In this document: one piece after another, positions 1,816 through 28,800 of the stretch
Position numbering within the stretch: the stretch's first letter is position 1
How the letters are laid out: every line of letters begins with the position of its first letter
DNA from: Vairimorpha necatrix
Lineage: Eukaryota
Assembly: GCA_036630325.1 (NCBI GenBank)
Contig: CP142726.1
Coordinates: 992,001 to 1,056,000 of the forward strand
Direction: 5' to 3'
Length of the DNA stretch: 64,000 nt
The notes under the pieces: generated by a model
The model's input: the letters and a program-made list of their open reading frames with translations, nothing else
The model's database searches: none
Told to the model about the DNA's origin: nothing
Translations under genes and position numbers: made by a program

Positions 1816-3424
1816 AGTAATAAAATAAATTTTATATAAATACAATGCATTAATAATTTATGATCGTTTTGGGAACAAGGTAGTGTAAAGCATATTCAAC
1901 GTTAAAATAGATACTTATTTCAAGGTAACATTTTAAAAAAGAGCTGGTTTGTATTTTTTGTTTTATTTTGTGAATGTATTTACAATGAACAAGATAAAAA
2001 TATCATTGTTTGTATTAATTAAACGTAATTTATTATTTTCATCAATTTAAATAATTTGATATTTTTTATTTTTTAATATAATATTTTGATCTTAGAAGCA
2101 CTTACTGATTAAAGTCATTCAAAACCTTAAAATGTTTGAAGCACAAACATGTATTCAGAGATAATTATTATCTCTTAATCGTTTTATTATGATTGAGAAT
2201 CCGCATCAGAAAAAAATAGATTGCCAAAATTTTCATACAAAATTGACACATTTTAACAATATATCTACATTAAAAAACATAATCTGAAATTAAACTATTG
2301 ATAATGAATATTAGATTATAAATGTTGATCAAAGAATCGAGGTTTTAGTCCTCATATGCATTCAAAAAAGAATAAACATTTTTTTAAGTATATAAATTAA
2401 TGTTATATATTTTTATTATGACAATAATTATTTCGTATAAATTCGTACTACGACATTTCAAATTTTTGATGAAAGATTTTCATGGTATTTAAGGCGTAAA
2501 AATATTTTAGTTTGCGTACTTGTCTTTTTCCTTTGCCTACAAGTACATAAATGACATTTTTTTCAAATATTGTCCTTAATTAGTGTAATGTTATGTTTTG
2601 GCTCTATGTTTTTTAATTCCAGCATTTCAGAAAATAAATCCAATAGGTGTAATTAGCTTATATTTGAAAGCAATGTTTTAATATTTTAAGAAACGGATTT
2701 GATTCTAGGAACAAAAAGCCTTCGTTAAAAGATGAGTTGTATTATTCTTGGATTTAAAATGTGTCGCCGCAAAGGTCATGTTGAAGCATTTATCTTTAAA
2801 CTTCAAACGTTGGAGAAATTCCCACCAGGTGGAAATTGCGTCCTTAGGTCGAAGTATAATCAATGTTACTTCACAGTAAGTAAAGTGGGACATAATAAGC
2901 TCTCTTATGATACACTTTAAAAATGAACCTTATGCGCCAAATCAAGCGATTAACAAAACATAGACAAGCGTCCATGGACACCAACCTATGAGATCATGTA
3001 CATATTGTGAAATTTGTGCAATACAAATTGTCAACACGTAGTATAAAAAGTAATACTTATGATGTAACGCTGAATAAACTTCGTGCAATATGCAGATTTA
3101 CAGTAAATTGGGCTAGTATTAATGTCTCGCTTAAATTTATCAAAGCACTGTATGCTAAAAAAATCCACAGTGAAAGTTTTAAAGATGCGAAAATTATACA
3201 GATCTTTGTTTTTTTACCAATGAATATTGTAGGCTTGATGTGCATCAAGTTTGAAATGTGGAATTGAGGCAAGCAAAATTTAAATATATATATATATATA
3301 TATATTAAAATCAGGGCATAGTGTAGCTTAAATTCAACTTTACTTATCTAATTTTCTTTTAAAAAGAAGAAAAAGAGACATATAATTTAAATTTATTTTT
3401 TTTACAGCTTCTATACATTAGAAC

Positions 3425-3480
3425 TAAACATATTTATTCTAAAATTAAGGGTATAAAATATAATTTTTTAAATCTCAACA
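3425..3480 (-). repeat. 3' LTR (56 bp)
   Basis: Reads TGTTGAGATT...TACCCTTAATTTTAGAATAAATATGTTTA; identical to 5161-5216; preceded on the minus strand by the polypurine tract at 3481-3490. Confidence 0.92.
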
Positions 3481-3488
3481 TCCCCCTC

Positions 3489-4238
3489 TTAAAAACATTC
3501 GTCTATTATCAATTTCAGCTGAGAAGAATGTCGCTTAATAGTTTTGTTTCCTGTCCTCACCAGATATGTGTTGTTTTCTAAAACTTTATAAATTAAACCT
3601 CTAACCTTAAATTTGGGTTCTCCCTTTTTGACACCTGTTTCCGTTTTTATAATAACGCTATCCCCCTCTGAAAATTGTGGTTCGGTTTCTCGGTTTTTAT
3701 TTCTTTCATTGAATTTTAGTATCTCCTCATATTGTTTTTCTTTCACCTTTTGGAAATTGGTCGGGTTTAAAGCATCATTCGGAGACATACCTAACTTACT
3801 ATGATATATATTGTTATATACATCTAAAACCTTTAAAAGTTTAATTTTAAGATTTTCTTTTCCCTCTTGTTTGTATATTCCTTCTTGTATTGTCCTATTA
3901 AATCTTTCCACTCTTCCATTGGACTGGTGGTGAAATGGTGAGGTATAATGTAATTCGACATTATTACTTGCTGCCCAACATCTTACTTCTTTACTTAGGT
4001 TTTCTTTCGATTGATCTAAAATTAGTTTATGTATCTTAATTTTTTGATTTATCATATCTAAAAATTTTACAATTTTCTTACTCTCCCTGGAACTTAGTAC
4101 CTTTCCAAATCCGAATCGACTAAAGTAATCAATCCCAGACACGATATATTGGTTGTTAATTGGACCAATAATATCTATTGCTACTTTCTCTCCAATTGCA
4201 TGTGACTTTACAAATAAAATTCTTTTCCTATTAACACT
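3489..4238 (-). CDS. Retroelement DDE integrase core, lacking the N-terminal HHCC finger
   Basis: The frame is open from 4238: ..EKVAIDIIGP..SGIDYFSR..ILDQSKE..TSPFHHQSNGRVERFNRTI..YNNIYHSKLGMSP. It overlaps the protease stop in the -1 frame and has no ATG at its start. Confidence 0.85.
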   Translation of the reverse strand, partial: SVNRKRILFVKSHAIGEKVAIDIIGPINNQYIVSGIDYFSRFGFGKVLSSRESKKIVKFLDMINQKIKIHKLILDQSKENLSKEVRCWAASNNVELHYTSPFHHQSNGRVERFNRTIQEGIYKQEGKENLKIKLLKVLDVYNNIYHSKLGMSPNDALNPTNFQKVKEKQYEEILKFNERNKNRETEPQFSEGDSVIIKTETGVKKGEPKFKVRGLIYKVLENNTYLVRTGNKTIKRHSSQLKLIIDECF

Positions 4239-5167
4239 TTAAAATTTTTAACTTTTGGTAAAACATACATTCTGCTTTTAAATATTCTATTACCATATTT
4301 GTATTCCACAATAACATGGTTTTCAACTAGAAATTCTTCTTCAAGACATGTGAAAAATTTCAAAACATTCATATTCTTATTGAGTTTCAATTTTAAATCA
4401 TAGACAGCTTGAAGAGAGATAAAGTTGTAGGCCGCACCGGAATCAAAAACCACGGGGACTTTTTTAGTCCCAACATAAATAAAATTATTTTTATTCGTAA
4501 TAAAGCTTTGATCTACTTCCTGGCTATTCTTTTCAATCTCATTAATATTCCTTCGATCATCATTAGCCTGTTTATTATTTCGATTCACCCTACAATCCTT
4601 AGCTAAATGTCCTGGCCTTCTGCATCTAAAGCATGTATTTGGTTGGTTCTGTTTAGTAAGTCTTAAACCAGCCAACTTGATATTCAATAATGCTTCGTTC
4701 TCTATCTCATTTAATATTTCGTAAAATTCTTTGTTGATCTCATATTGGGTCGTAAGAAAAATTTTAATCATTTTTAATTTCTTATCTACTCCTGTTCTAA
4801 TAATTTTTCTTCTGTCAAAATTGGAAATTTCATTTTCATTACATTTAGAAACTACATCTTTGATAAAATCAACAACTTTTTGTTCTTCCTTTTGCTTCAT
4901 ATTGTAAATGTCAAAAAGCAATGTTTTATTCTCAAATTCTTGTTCCACTTCTTTTTTCCAGATTTCAAACGTTAAAGCAGCTTTCCTTTTATCTTTAAAA
5001 GTCCTACAATGCCAATCTAAAATATGAGAGTTAAGTCTGCTTATAAAAAAATCTAACTTCTCCTCATTGGTCATTTTTGCCCAACTACTCAGAGCCTCTG
5101 CTCTTCTAATTTCTACTATTATATTGTCTTTGTTTATTTCGTTTTTTATATTCTCCACCATAAACAT
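4208..5167 (-). CDS. Gag with CCHC zinc knuckle fused to aspartic protease
   Basis: CFRCRRPGHLAKDC knuckle, VVFDSGAAYNFIS protease active site, KVLIGKEF C-terminal motif. The ATG lies inside the 5' LTR. Confidence 0.9.
   Translation of the reverse strand: MFMVENIKNEINKDNIIVEIRRAEALSSWAKMTNEEKLDFFISRLNSHILDWHCRTFKDKRKAALTFEIWKKEVEQEFENKTLLFDIYNMKQKEEQKVVDFIKDVVSKCNENEISNFDRRKIIRTGVDKKLKMIKIFLTTQYEINKEFYEILNEIENEALLNIKLAGLRLTKQNQPNTCFRCRRPGHLAKDCRVNRNNKQANDDRRNINEIEKNSQEVDQSFITNKNNFIYVGTKKVPVVFDSGAAYNFISLQAVYDLKLKLNKNMNVLKFFTCLEEEFLVENHVIVEYKYGNRIFKSRMYVLPKVKNFKVLIGKEFYL
5150..5160 (-). promoter_or_regulatory. Primer-binding site, probably for tRNA-Ala
   Basis: TGGTGGAGAAT abuts the LTR and is complementary to ...ATTCTCCA-CCA, a typical eukaryotic tRNA-Ala 3' end. 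Confidence 0.7.
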
Positions 5168-5216
5168 ATTTATTCTAAAATTAAGGGTATAAAATATAAT
5201 TTTTTAAATCTCAACA
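5161..5216 (-). repeat. 5' LTR (56 bp)
   Basis: Identical to 3425-3480. Confidence 0.92.
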
Positions 5217-5526
5217 AGAACAATTCGCAAAATTTTATAAAGAAGGTTTTTATGTATGATAGTTATATTGTAAACGCTAGATGCATTTATTTTGATGCGC
5301 CAAAAGTACAAGAATATGATCTATGATACAAATTTAATACTATAAGCAGCATATACTACCAACAAAATTGTGACTTATACGTAGTTAAAACATGAAAAGC
5401 CTTCATAAATAAATTAATATTAATTTAGACTATTTGCCGTATATGCCAGGAAACGAAATATAAATTAAGTCGATACAATAAAACTTAGTCAACTTCTTGC
5501 TATAAAATTTATTTTTATAATCTATG

Positions 5527-6114
5527 AGTGGATGTCCGATTTACCTCATATTGAAAATATAAATAAAAAAGAGGATAAAATAAGGGGCCTAACGATTTAT
5601 TTTAAATAATAAAAATAATTATTTATACGTTGATTTTTTAGTCTTTGATGGGCCCAGAGGAACTGTTTAAGGTACTCATAGTGTTCATCCTGGTTTATTC
5701 CATGTCTAGATCGAATATCTCATTTGGAGAGAGATTCTAATCCATCAATTTGTTTGAAATTGTATATAAGGATCTTAGAGTTTACAAAATTGATAGAGTG
5801 ATTCACAGTCCTGTACTCAATCCCTTTGATTTGTATAATGCGGCATCATATGCTCTCCATTGATCACAATAAGATCAAACAATATATTATCTCATATTAC
5901 CTCAAAAAGAATAGCAGTATTTCTACTAGCTAAGGAAATAGCAATGCACACGCCGATTAAACATCATTATATGATTCAAAAAACATCTTAAAATATTTTT
6001 ATATTTAAAAATATTATATCACTAAAAAGCTCATCTGTTTTTGTAATCTTAACATTTTTTTATAAATTGGCCGTATTTTAAATTTTCAATGCAAATTTCG
6101 GAAGGCCATGCACC
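5527..6114 (-). mobile_element. Internally deleted, degenerate Merlin-family element
   Basis: 8-bp TSD AATCTATG at 5519-5526 and 6115-6122. Decayed TIRs (AGTGGATGTCC..TTGAAAAT versus GGTGCATGGCC..TTGAAAAT). Minus-strand remnant DQWRAY..VNHS..NFVN. Clearly homologous to 30072-30701. Confidence 0.75.
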
Positions 6115-6205
6115 AATCTATGTTCCCAATGTAGGAAGTTTGTTTTTTATTTCGCATTTGTTTTTCTATCTTATTTCCTTTTTTATTTACTTAACAATAA
6201 AGGGC

Positions 6206-17641: not shown

Positions 17642-17723
17642 GGACAAATGGCCGAGTGGTCCAAGGCGCTAGCTTCAGGTGTTAGTAGGTAAAACTGCGT
17701 GGGTTCGAATCCCACTTTGTCCA
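17642..17723 (+). tRNA. tRNA-Leu(CAG)
   Basis: Acceptor stem GGACAAA/TTTGTCC; TGGCCGAGTGG box A; anticodon arm CTAGC-TTCAGGT-GTTAG; long variable arm; GGTTCGAATCC; T-run directly downstream. Confidence 0.95.
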
Positions 17724-24161: not shown

Positions 24162-24936
24162 GGTGCCCTTAGCACAGTGGCAGAATGCTATGCTTCCATT
24201 GAGCAATGGCTGGGTTCGATTCCCAGGGGCACCAAAATTGTTCCTACTTTCTATGATGCAGATGATGAAAATGTCAACGAGAAATTATAAGTTGATTCAA
24301 TGAAACTTGTGTGTGTCCAGCCACAAGAGGATTAGCATCTTGTGTAGAAACGCACCTCAAAACCAAAAAACAGTATCTCCCCTTGGTACCTTGATTATGC
24401 ATAAAAGTATCTAATGGGTACGGCCTAGTTGGAGCCCATGGCTGGTGCACTCTAGAGTTGGATCCTGGAGCTAACTAAGAGACTAGACGAGGTTCGGCAA
24501 TGGAAGTTCTCGTGGACCCTATCCTATAAGATCTGAAACACGGTGGCCGAAACTAGTGGGGAACTGGTGGTCAACGCAGCCAAATAAATCCGCCGGGCTG
24601 GTGATGGGGTCGTGTAAGGTGCCGTGTGTGCAATACAGATGATTGTAGGGACCTTTGAATCAGTACGATGATGTCTCTCCTCGGGTCATAGATAACCATG
24701 CCCGTTAAGTATATCTGCTGTGAGGTCACTCTGGACGCGATTTGAGGTATAAATAGAAGGTTTTCTCTGGAAGCCAAAGTCCAATGGATACGGCGGAGCT
24801 TGCTGCACCGGTATGTTGTATGGAGGGAGTTTTAGTGAGTAAGAATCTCACAGTACCAGTTAGATGAGGATCCCACCCAAATCCTTCTGGTCCCTATGTA
24901 AGGTTTCTCGCTGCCTCTTAAATGCAAGGAAAAAAA
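24162..24936 (+). mobile_element. tRNA-derived SINE-like element
   Basis: tRNA-like head at 24162-24234 with box A TAGCACAGTGG (24170-24180), box B GGTTCGATTCC (24213-24223) and a non-canonical anticodon arm. Visibly GC-rich noncoding body; ends in an A run at 24930-24936. Confidence 0.7.
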
Positions 24937-25829: not shown

Positions 25830-28800
25830 ATGGAAATCATAAAAGTAATTTTTTTGTTTGTATTGGTCAAAACTAGGCATTCGTTATACGAAAACGTAAA
25901 TAACGATGCTATGGAAAAGCTAAAAACAGGGGATTTTATGTCTATTGATGTTTCAACCCCAGAAAAATATCTCGCTATATCTGCAAATTTTTATGAAGGA
26001 GCAGTAACATTTGGAATGTCAAATGGTACAGTTGAAAACAATATAGATTATGATTTGGGAAGATTTAAAGTTTTCACGAGAAATAAATCAGTAGTTGACA
26101 TTATAATTGAAATGGAGACGGAGATAGAATTGCTTTTTGATGTCTCGAATTACTATTCAATTGTGCTTTTGGCCAAAGTTAGCTTTAGGACGCAAATTTC
26201 AATATAGGGGTTTTTTGTTTTTTTGCCCCTTTTTTTAAAAAATGGAAGAAAGAAAATGTGGAGGAAGGAACAAAAATTAAAATTAGAACAATAAATTTAA
26301 TAATGCATCGAAAACAGAATCAGAGGAATTTCTCTGGAGCATATCTCTAAGTAAATAAAGTTTGGCGCTGTTTTTTGACCTATTTCTGTTAGGTATGGAA
26401 TTTTTGAGTGAACGCCAATTACCTTCAATGGTATTGGTGTGTACTCCAGTATTTGGATCTCGAAAGTTTAATGAGTGGTTTACCATATAATGTTTTTTAA
26501 ATAAGGTACCCAATGAATGATAAGCCCTCCACATATCACTATGTATAGTGCTTTTTGTATTAACAAATTTCAATAAGAGATCTGTAAGAGTTTCTTTATC
26601 TCTTTTCTTAATATATAGAACCACAAACTTACGTTCGATAGTACGTTCTAACAAGCCGAAACACCAAACCCCCTTCGCTAATTTTCCTCTGTTATATTTA
26701 TTTTTTCCGATTTTAGTTTCATCTACTTCAACAATGATATCTTCTCCTCCTATCTAGTTTAAAGATGATAAATATTTATCATAGAGGTTTAATTTCTTAA
26801 TTTTTTAAGTAAAAAGATATCGAAGGTTTTGAACAACAGAGAATTTGGCAAATAAATTTATAAGAATAGCCAAAAATCCACAAATTTGTACCTGCAAAAT
26901 TGTGATATGATCGAGTTTGGTGTTTTCAAAGAAAGTATTCGTCCATATCGATGTTTGCTTTGTACGATCTTTCCAGGTACAATTAAAACACAACTTTGCT
27001 TTCTCGTTAATCTCATTCTATTATCACACACACTGCAAATCTGATTTTGTCTTTTAGTAATTAAATTTTCATACACTATTTCTAATTCTGCTCTTGTCAT
27101 TATTCTTTCTTCCATTTTTTAAAAAAAGGGGCAAAAAAAAACAAAAAACCCCTATATCGAAATTTGCGTCCTAAAGCTAACTTTAGCCGTGCTTTTTATG
27201 ATACAAAACATCGAGAAGCATACCATATTATGAAAGAGTTTGTGTTCGAACTCATAAAAATTAATAATGAAAGAAAAATAAAGACATGTCTTTTTGTAAT
27301 TAACTATGAAAAAATATGTGAAGCTAGCAAAGCATTTCAAAAACACATAAGAGAAATTTTTAATTTTACTGGAAAAAATAACAAAGGATTGTCTCGGGTT
27401 AAGATTTGTCCTTATTTTTATTGGCAAAACTATAGAAATAATGTCGTAGTATATATTTACATTAATAATATTTGCCATGTCATGGAATTTTGTGCCAACG
27501 AATATTATCATATTGTTTTGGCAGAATTTGGCTTTAAAAACTAAATAAAGATCGAACATATGAATTACTTCAAATAAAATATATATATTATTACAACAGT
27601 ATTGGTTTTTACACCATAAGTTATTGTGTCGATAAATTAAATTGTTCCACTAAAAAAATTGAAATGAACAAAAACAACCAATGTTTAAAAATACAGATAG
27701 AAACAGAACATATAATTATTAAAATCAACGACACGGAACATTATTACAATATTCAAGGTGACATAGACCCCGATGAAAACAAATTTACATAAGCATGAAC
27801 TGTTATAAAGAATTTCGAACTTTTTTAAATGTACTAAGCGGCACCCAGTTTCTAGACGCCATATATTTTTTTTATAAATTAGTAGTTAATGATGATACAA
27901 TACATTCTATCATTCAAAGCATTATAAACAAACCAATATCGTAATAAAAACAATATTTTGTCATTTATTGTTATATAAAAAAGTAATAGATATAGATAAA
28001 TTTAGCACTATAATTTACAATTCAGAATATAGTGAAACGAAAATTGCAGAACTAACAAAAAAATTTTTATCAAATATAAGAATGTCTCTCTTTGATGATT
28101 TTTCATATTTACTAACCTTATGCTTACTCTTAGAAACAGAAACCTATATTAACGAAAATGAATTTGAAGAAAATACACTATTTGGTCTATTGAAAGAAAT
28201 CGGAATCGTCAATGTTGAATTCAAAAATGTGTTTAAATGTCGTGTTTTAAGTTCACATATAAATTTACTTGAGGTTTTTTATGAGATTGCGAATATACAT
28301 AATACTAATTATACATTTAATAACGAGGCGATTGTATATCATATTTGTAAAATAAGCGCATTATTTACAGGCCTGAGCTCTATAAATATCTATTATGATG
28401 TAATAAATGACAACATTAATATAAAACAAGACGAAATAATTGCTGAATACAATCTCGACAAAAAAGATATAACGAAAAACAATGAGATTATAACAAAAAA
28501 ATTAATCGAAAATTCAATCTAAAAGAAAAATTTAAATGTTTTGAAAGACATATTCTCATTTATTTCAATTAAAGAAAAGTTCACCTATATTTATATAGAA
28601 ATTATAGATAAATATTTAGAAAATAATTATGACAAAAAAGAAAAAAAGATAATTAAAAACAAAGTCAAATTTGAAATTGAAAAAAATTTTAATGAACGTG
28701 AAGCAGAATTACTTTCCATGAATATAACTAAAAGTAATATAGCGAACGTAGGAAAATATTCAATACTAAATTTACCCTTAGACTAAAAATGTACACTGAA

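Follow-up and report, generated by a model that had tools for sequence, protein, structure and literature searches.

The 64-kb stretch of Vairimorpha necatrix DNA analysed here (assembly GCA_036630325.1, contig CP142726.1, positions 992,001 to 1,056,000; hereafter the window) carries at 3425-5216, on the minus strand, an LTR retroelement of only 1,792 bp that has Gag, protease and integrase sequence and no RT. The question raised by this mini element is whether it represents a semi-autonomous Gag-protease-integrase class that borrows RT from a helper, as the initial annotation proposed, or a single accident within a complete family. As can be seen below, the evidence points to the second reading, to which we give a probability of roughly 77%: a single, young and defective deletion derivative of an active, very compact Ty3/gypsy family in a microsporidian of the Nosema/Vairimorpha clade.

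Regarding its terminal and priming signals, the element possesses two 56-bp LTRs, the 5' LTR at 5161-5216 and the 3' LTR at 3425-3480 (TGTTGAG...ATGTTTA on the minus strand), which are 100% identical; for the LTR direct repeats, none of 100 shuffles gave 2 matches. Both ends are flanked by the pentamer AGAAC, read directly from the sequence as a TSD at 5217-5221 on the 5' side and at 3420-3424 on the 3' side. The LTRs end in TG...TA rather than TG...CA, the latter being present in the relative L081. A PBS-like string, TGGTGGAGAATA, adjoins the 5' LTR at 5149-5160 (minus strand), and the string TGGTGGAGAA is also located directly after the 58-bp LTR of L081. At the opposite end, AAGAGGGGGA (3481-3490, minus strand) abuts the 3' LTR and overlaps the integrase stop codon, and may act as PPT, judging from its position alone. 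Concerning the primer, neither of the window's two tRNAs (tRNA-Met and tRNA-Leu) fits the PBS beyond TGGTG. Self-priming of the Tf1 type was considered and rejected, as no complement of the PBS was seen by eye in the LTR.

Two frames without stops lie between these signals on the minus strand: a Gag-protease (Gag-PR) frame of 331 aa, stop to stop, at 4208-5203, and a frame of 249 aa at 3489-4238 for the integrase (IN) core and C-terminal region. The Gag-PR frame has ATGs at 5167 and 5161, and the Gag ATG at 5161-5159 straddles the LTR/PBS border; among the relatives in alignment A2, MVE[NS] occupies the Gag-start position in 6 of 16. The CCHC knuckle is situated at about 4589-4639 and the protease at about 4217-4546, as recognized by the Pfam profiles zf-CCHC (1.1e-05), RVP_2 (2.1e-04) and Asp_protease_2, the last matched by Gag-PR residues 245-329 over positions 6-90 of its 90. 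Meanwhile, the IN frame matches rve_3 (1e-06) and rve (4.4e-04). RT, RNase H and H2C2 gave no Pfam match in the mini element, which has no room for them, and the IN frame begins just past the CxxC..YNP of the relatives (alignment A1), so that the HHCC finger is missing. Up to this point, the initial annotation was correct in describing at 3420-5221 a structurally complete LTR element with identical LTRs, a 5-bp TSD, PBS-like and PPT-like sites and two stop-free frames, deprived of RT, RNase H and the HHCC finger.

The missing domains are present in the relatives of this element. The IN sequence is 60-64% identical to integrase-containing proteins of Vairimorpha necatrix (E 2e-88 to 2.6e-91), with further homologues among Nosema granulosis and Pancytospora polyproteins, and Gag-PR is 92% identical to the V. 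necatrix fragment P0015. In the 1111-aa polyprotein P0137, residues 10-347 match Gag-PR 15-328 (32% identity, E 5.8e-47) and residues 864-1103 match IN 8-247, and the 516 residues between the two parts carry RVT_1, RT_RNaseH and Integrase_H2C2. The order PR-RT-RNaseH-H2C2-IN within one ORF is found in P0137, P0022 and P0135, but not in the mini element. The full-length relatives are Ty3/gypsy elements that encode a single polyprotein and measure about 3.3-3.4 kb, with LTRs of 56-58 bp; one of them is L081 (3364 bp, 58-bp LTRs, 1071-aa ORF), and this compact architecture is the norm in the family. A Ty1/copia order, with PR directly before IN, was also considered for the PR-IN adjacency and discarded, because RNase H and H2C2 stand directly upstream of IN in the relatives and in contigs of the same family. 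Microsporidian Ty3/gypsy elements with a single polyprotein have been described by Parisot et al. 2014 (PMC4202319), although the LTR lengths of the published families were not found in the portion of that article available. Beyond these relatives, a metagenome scan with the IN alignment A1 gave at least 80 loci, of which those listed all have 42% identity or less and correspond to generic gypsy integrases, and a protein scan of the viral contig set gave no match. In a distant relative, P0029 compared with P0022 is an independent in-frame deletion derivative, indicating that RT-less open-frame forms recur in the group.

The junction between PR and IN was compared with contigs of two public runs, X1 and X2. 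One X1 contig, 1330 nt long, aligns to 3425-4228 without a mismatch before running on for 526 letters that differ from the window; manual translation of the first 30 of them in the IN frame yields ..CKMYNPKRG.., where the HHCC finger ends, comparable to CKMYNPKRGK in P0135. A second X1 contig agrees with the window from 4221 upward and differs from it before this position, where the contig's letters continue the Gag-PR frame without stops (..DDICKVFRQP, comparable to QELIKIFAKP in P0135). In X2, the match of record 13 (1197 nt, depth 181) likewise ends at 4228 and is followed by 982 further letters. Thus, there is a full-length form whose sequence on either side of the junction is that of the element: as expected of an autonomous partner, the contigs of X1 and X2 match the element exactly or almost exactly on each side and continue into the deleted part. 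As these contigs run out of PR and of the IN core, they imply the full pol order for the element's own family as well. In addition, the matches reach 4228 from the IN side and 4221 from the PR side, meaning that the two breakpoints share 8 nt, GGAAAAGA, at 4221-4228 (minus strand).

The consequences of this join can be read in the two frames. As the length of the deletion is not a multiple of three, the IN part lies in the -1 frame relative to Gag-PR, with a 31-nt overlap at 4208-4238. The protease is cut 0-4 residues past its LIGK motif, and the tail EFYL* that follows is IN-side sequence read out of frame; therefore the LIGKEF previously taken as the protease end is a chimera of both sides. 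In the IN frame, no Met occurs before residue 62, which lies past the first catalytic Asp. No slippery heptamer of the X XXY YYZ type is located inside the overlap (4208-4238), and in the case of the nearest one, AAATTTT at 4247, the -1 frame meets TAA at once. A stimulatory RNA structure was not seen in the fold of 4110-4226 either (z = -0.98; 32 of 200 shuffles fold as well), so that neither element of a programmed -1 frameshift, a heptamer in the overlap and a downstream structure, is present for PR/IN. The Gag-PR and IN frames were indeed kept open, as initially annotated, but IN has been left in the -1 frame without a usable start or frameshift signal, and translation of this part would not be expected. 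Within the overlap there is also an A-AAA-G, on which a single-tRNA -1 slip is sterically possible and would bring IN into frame.

Regarding the age of the insertion, an X2 contig passes directly from 3420 to 5222, lacking the element, at a depth of 11.1 that equals that of its flank. As this contig reads AAAAA after 3420 in place of AGAAC, it does not match an empty site letter for letter. According to the available part of PMC10759460, V. necatrix as published is tetraploid and its pseudo-haplotypes are about 96% identical, and so the element-less contig may be another haplotype rather than another strain. The two X1 contigs differ from the element at 0/804 and 7/844 positions, the former over the IN half. 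Together with the identical LTRs, the flank-to-flank contig and these few differences demonstrate that the insertion is young, as had been assumed. The absence of stops in the frames is explained by this youth, decay having had too little time, and not by selection. The word depth of contigs with element sequence is 181-1073 in X2, compared to 7.8-11.1 for flank contigs, and 14.8-18.1 compared to 2.7-3.75 in X1, depth not being equal to copy number. The activity of this compact Ty3/gypsy family in a Vairimorpha-type microsporidian is current or recent. The start of another X2 contig, 3452-3662, falls 29 nt within the LTR, counted from its inner edge, which we read as the k=31 graph break expected at a repeat. 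In the freshwater metagenomes X3 and X4, two 151-nt contigs are near-identical to IN, and the remaining matches are short, chance-like pieces.

Deletion between short repeats is an ordinary and common path of decay of LTR elements. In the reading preferred here, the parent would be an element of about 3.3 kb with 56-bp LTRs that encodes one Gag-PR-RT-RNaseH-IN polyprotein, its start codon lying across the LTR/PBS border. Two copies of GGAAAAGA, one at the protease end and one just behind the HHCC finger, would have recombined, with the loss of about 1.5 kb comprising RT, RNase H and the HHCC finger of IN. This may have taken place by template switching of RT during the cDNA synthesis of this copy, which is slightly favoured (about 55:45), or by a microhomology-mediated deletion after integration; the timing and the mechanism proposed for the deletion are accordingly both provisional. 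Having kept LTRs, PBS and PPT, the derivative could in principle be mobilised by full-length copies, and the idea of a borrowed RT holds insofar as movement would be possible only with RT in trans and a full-length form exists, but nothing shows a past mobilisation.

A propagating semi-autonomous lineage would go further, with the element making its own Gag, perhaps also IN via a -1 slip, and taking RT from full-length helpers. All cis signals are intact, Gag-PR is open from the ATG at the LTR/PBS border, there are helpers whose flanking sequence is identical and the insertion is recent, all of which such a lineage would show; low-level slippage on A-AAA-G could be permitted, and P0029 provides another RT-less open-frame derivative in a relative. 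Non-autonomous LTR families of plants can also keep GAG/PROT together with POL remnants including INT, as stated in the accessible part of PMC13570524. However, the join shifts the frame and falls on an 8-nt microhomology, which is what an accidental deletion would produce, slippery heptamer and stimulatory structure are both missing, and the parent family encodes one uninterrupted polyprotein, meaning that frameshifting is not a family trait. The enzymes themselves are also truncated, as PR ends right after LIGK and IN has lost its HHCC domain. Among retroviral enzymes, dimerisation and concerted integration require the C-terminal strand of PR and the N-terminal domain of IN. Moreover, the IN half has 0/804 private substitutions relative to the full-length contig, leaving no time for a separate lineage.

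The number of copies bears on the same lineage. No second copy of the junction was found within the 64-kb window, and the IN-side junction string gave 0 matches in the prokaryote and viral contig sets. The mini Gag-PR protein, in an exact look-up from either ATG, is not in the protein collection, where the window's own copy is missing as well; as V. necatrix transposable elements were soft-masked before gene prediction (PMC10759460, available part), this absence is uninformative on copy number. Across the window, the protein collection and the prokaryote and viral contigs, the element is thus probably single-copy. Given the out-of-frame deletion at an 8-nt repeat and the lack of a second junction copy in the places searched, the proposed Gag-PR-IN class is not upheld, and a propagating lineage of this kind is unlikely. 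In a variant of it, the 1.8-kb form would have founded, or would belong in low copy number to, a parasite that encodes Gag-PR and exploits the 3.3-kb parent, being mobilised in trans within a tetraploid microsporidian, with an occasional -1 slip on A-AAA-G yielding a Gag-PR-IN(core) fusion. This is very unlikely; if true, a TR-GAG-like lineage would here be seen arising outside plants, at its first step.

An artefact of assembly would instead place a full-length element at the locus, with about 1.5 kb collapsed by the assembler or polisher. The junction as it stands in the window, bridging 4228/4229, is on none of the 32 pieces listed from the public runs, 120 more lying beyond the listing, and on no listed contig of X1 or X2: records 13 and 14 account for the whole of the X2 bin 4178-4304, so that no piece there covers 4229-4267, and the X1 bin at the junction is accounted for by contigs whose match to the window ends at 4221 or 4228. 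Rare variants are dropped from contigs, and the missing junction is therefore no proof against the mini form. A clean collapse exactly at an 8-nt repeat would be an unusual signature for long-read misassembly, deletions at short repeats are common in LTR elements, and the window has no N and is otherwise regular in this region. Even considering a multi-copy family in a repeat-rich, probably tetraploid genome (PMC10759460, available part), such a collapse is highly improbable. Domestication as a host gene pair (Gag-PR and IN core) under selection is extremely improbable, since the open frames and the 10 synonymous changes among the 18 differences to other copies listed inside the element are set against a synonymous excess that describes the whole family and not this copy, a locus missing from the X2 flank-to-flank contig (one presence/absence polymorphism), intact LTRs, TSD, PBS and PPT, and ORFs missing from the protein collection.

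Internally deleted copies of LTR elements and retroviruses arise at short direct repeats via RT template switching or illegitimate recombination. The preferred reading as a deletion derivative agrees with them in the 8-nt microhomology, the intact LTRs and TSD and the high identity to the full-length form, without any difference of substance. Both processes are mentioned for plant LTR elements in the part of PMC13570524 available, which also reports sugar-beet families with GAG/PROT and INT remnants. The TR-GAG, TRIM and LARD elements of plants resemble the mini element in having LTRs, PBS and PPT and no RT, as well as an open gag(-PR) in TR-GAG; however, they are multi-copy families with their own history, whereas the mini element is one known copy, whose sequence on either side of the deletion is essentially that of its autonomous parent. 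Compared to the microsporidian single-polyprotein Ty3/gypsy elements (PMC4202319, available part), Gag(CCHC)-PR and IN are homologous, but RT, RNase H and H2C2 are missing from the mini copy, whose IN has been shifted out of frame.

The value of the deleted copy is modest. It provides a clean and datable example of how an RT-less LTR derivative may originate, by an out-of-frame join at an 8-nt microhomology, and a caution that stop-free frames in a young copy are not evidence of selection. With its size of about 3.3-3.4 kb, LTRs of 56-58 bp and a start codon lying across the LTR/PBS border, the architecture of the parent family may interest specialists in transposons and microsporidia more than the deleted copy. 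As for the remainder of the window, tblastn of 22 related retroelement proteins gave nothing outside the mini element, and the sole other TE-like signal seen there is a Merlin-type transposase fragment of 156 aa at 26283-26753.

The element is a young copy with an internal deletion, derived from an active, compact Ty3/gypsy family, and solitary in that the sets searched contain no second copy of its junction. Its earlier description as a reverse transcriptase (RT)-less LTR retroelement of 1,792 bp is correct. It lies on the minus strand, flanked outside each LTR by an AGAAC duplication (3420-3424 and 5217-5221). The LTRs are identical direct repeats of just 56 nt (3425-3480 and 5161-5216; TGTTGAG...ATGTTTA on the minus strand), a two-match pattern found in 0/100 shuffles. 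On that strand, the order is LTR, a PBS-like site directly after it (TGGTGGAGAATA), a Gag-protease (Gag-PR) frame of 331 codons (4208..5203), an integrase (IN) frame of 249 codons (3489..4238), a PPT-like tract (AAGAGGGGGA) and, just behind the latter, the second LTR. Both frames are stop-free, as reported, while the LTR length, the strand and the relation of the frames needed amendment, the IN frame being -1 relative to Gag-PR and overlapping it by 31 nt. In the Pfam search, the Gag-PR frame has a CCHC knuckle and a retropepsin domain (Asp_protease_2 on residues 245-329, profile positions 6-90 of 90), and the IN frame has the integrase core (rve and rve_3); RT, RNase H and the H2C2 finger were found in neither frame, bearing out their reported absence. 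Regarding the primer tRNA, the 3' ends of the window's tRNA-Leu(CAG) (17642-17723) and tRNA-Met(CAT) (24162-24234) genes complement the PBS no further than TGGTG.

The junction between both halves was compared, over window positions 2400-6200, with contigs of four public sequencing runs (X1-X4). A 1330-nt contig from X1 matches 3425-4228 with 0 mismatches and continues with 526 letters unlike the window, the first 30 of which, on manual translation in the IN frame, give CKMYNPKRG, the end of the HHCC finger (CKMYNPKRGK in the related V. necatrix protein P0135). A second X1 contig matches from 4221 upward, and the letters ahead of it carry on the Gag-PR frame free of stops (DDICKVFRQP, where P0135 has QELIKIFAKP); an X2 contig (1197 nt, depth 181) likewise departs from the window at 4228, with 982 more letters. 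As these contigs run on past both breakpoints, a full-length form with the same sequence on both sides does exist. Positions 4221-4228 (minus strand: GGAAAAGA) are common to both breakpoints; this octamer starts at codon position 1 in the protease and at codon position 2 behind the HHCC finger, so that the join shifts the frame. The protease does adjoin the integrase, but the reported end LIGKEF is not one protein end: LIGK is protease, and the following EFYL* is IN-side sequence out of frame. Such a join at an 8-nt repeat argues against the semi-autonomous Gag-PR-IN class, borrowing a helper's RT, that had been proposed from these observations, and the stop-free frames need no selection of their own, as the youth of the copy suffices. 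The observation is confirmed, and its interpretation partly supported.

The loss of about 1.5 kb would be a deletion between the two 8-nt repeats, and both RT template switching and microhomology-mediated deletion are well known in retroviruses and LTR retrotransposons. A template switch during cDNA synthesis would have made the copy defective from integration on, while a microhomology-mediated deletion would have followed integration; the former is slightly preferred, given how few other changes the copy has acquired, with a single copy unable to discriminate between them. For plant LTR elements, the available text of one source mentions template switching and illegitimate recombination (PMC13570524). 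No second copy with the same junction occurs in the 64-kb window; the exact Gag-PR protein is absent from a collection of 15 billion proteins, and the IN-side junction string has 0 matches in prokaryote-genome and viral contig sets, all three being weak tests for a second copy. A distant relative without RT (P0029, 517 aa, from a metagenome contig) aligns to the related protein P0022, likewise encoded on a metagenome contig, at 5-338, 771-886 and 990-1062, an in-frame double deletion joining Gag-PR to the RNase H tail and HHCC finger and then to the IN C-terminus, skipping the IN core; its breakpoints are independent of those of the window's element, indicating that such deletions recur. Mobility in its RT-less form would still make the element a variant of an already known kind; plant non-autonomous families with GAG/PROT and INT remnants are described in the same text (PMC13570524).

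More noteworthy than the deleted copy is a by-product, the compact architecture of its parent. Gag-PR residues 15-328 align with residues 10-347 of a 1111-aa polyprotein (P0137), and IN residues 8-247 with its residues 864-1103; the 516 residues between both matches comprise RVT_1, RT_RNaseH and Integrase_H2C2, and the corresponding gap in P0135 is about 500 residues. When aligned with its relatives, the IN frame begins directly after CxxC..YNP, the end of their HHCC finger. One relative's whole element (L081, 229-3592) measures 3,364 bp, with LTRs of 58 bp (TG...CA) and a single ORF of 1071 aa, and further full-length relatives have 1064-1111 aa on contigs of 3.26-3.73 kb. In both L081 and the window's element, TGGTGGAGAA abuts the 5' LTR, the Gag ATG spans the LTR/PBS border (5135-5221, minus strand, in the window) and the LTRs, compared by eye, have the strings TTTAAAAAATT and ACCCTTAA in common. 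This PBS encodes the conserved N-terminus MVEN, present in 6 of the 16 relatives aligned on the Gag side, plus P0137 and L081. The parent family is thus extremely compact, having LTRs of 56-58 bp and one polyprotein of ~1070-1110 aa; judging from the full-length relatives, the parent of this element would have measured ~3.3 kb, of which the window copy would lack ~1.5 kb. Microsporidian Ty3/gypsy elements in which a single polyprotein takes the place of separate gag and pol were described by Parisot et al. in the text available (PMC4202319).

The insertion is recent, as had been supposed, considering the identical LTRs, an X2 contig (depth 11.1) in which the flanks meet with no element between them, and 0/804 differences from the X1 contigs in the IN half, with 7/844 in the Gag half. 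In the X2 contig, the left flank is identical over 303 nt and 3420 is joined straight to 5222, so there is a chromosome or haplotype that lacks the element. The match is not letter-perfect, as five A's stand where AGAAC is expected (3416-3424 / 5217-5228), which could reflect an allelic A-run difference or another haplotype. Since the V. necatrix genome is described as tetraploid, with four pseudo-haplotypes ~96% identical (PMC10759460, in part), this contig may come from another haplotype instead of another strain. Word depth, which is not a copy number, reaches 181-1073 in X2 and 14.8-18.1 in X1 for element contigs, against 7.8-11.1 and 2.7-3.75 for flank contigs, fitting a multi-copy family. 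Synonymous changes make up 10 of the element's 18 listed differences, a listing that leaves out 47 others over the whole stretch compared; this share is consistent with purifying selection acting on the entire family. The X1 flanks are 3.5-9.5% off the window at 2655-3153 and 5326-5476 (7/200; 25 mismatches and 5 gaps in 264), in contrast to the few differences in the element itself (3425-5190), possibly because haplotypes or strains have diverged and the element spread recently, or because the flank matches are paralogous. Two freshwater metagenome runs (X3 and X4, seemingly a single data set deposited twice) include 151-nt contigs nearly identical to the IN part at 3466-3856, with 1-3 mismatches.

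Regarding expression, the first Met of the IN frame is residue 62, past the first catalytic Asp. An X XXY YYZ heptamer is absent from the 31-nt overlap, the nearest one (AAATTTT at 4247) leads directly to TAA in the -1 frame, and no stimulatory fold stands out in the 117 nt downstream (z = -0.98; 32/200 shuffles fold equally well or better). As the parent family has a single uninterrupted ORF, frameshifting is not its habit, and a one-tRNA slip on A-AAA-G is a possible means of bringing IN into frame. A retroviral protease cut right after the G-R/K-D/N motif lacks the strand that its C-terminus contributes to the dimer interface, and a retroviral integrase without its HHCC domain is not known to perform concerted integration.

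The closest relatives of the IN frame are microsporidian, from V. necatrix (60-64%), Nosema granulosis and Pancytospora philotis. P0015 (VNE69_05066), a V. necatrix protein of 106 aa, shares 92% identity with the Gag part and, by its sequence, resembles a degraded copy belonging to the element's family. The available text on the V. necatrix genome gives 28.3% GC and ~50% repeats, and TEs soft-masked ahead of gene calling, which would account for the absence of the element's ORFs from the protein collection (PMC10759460). The window has 21-35% G+C and is crowded with housekeeping ORFs poor in introns (AlaRS, a class II aaRS, a CPSF-A/DDB1-like protein, a kinase and eIF2A, the last 56% identical to its closest other match and 40% to N. 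granulosis). Beside the element, the stretch 5575-5955 is strongly repetitive across the public runs (its word depth sums to as much as 4194.8 in X2), with no ORF of at least 51 aa and several internal joints and loose contig ends, one of which, in X1, starts with TGTTGAG like the LTR; the stretch probably represents what is left of a different repeat family. A 156-aa frame (26283-26753, minus strand) is a Merlin-type transposase fragment (DDE_Tnp_IS1595, E 1e-15), from a DNA transposon superfamily known from microsporidia, according to the text available (PMC4202319).
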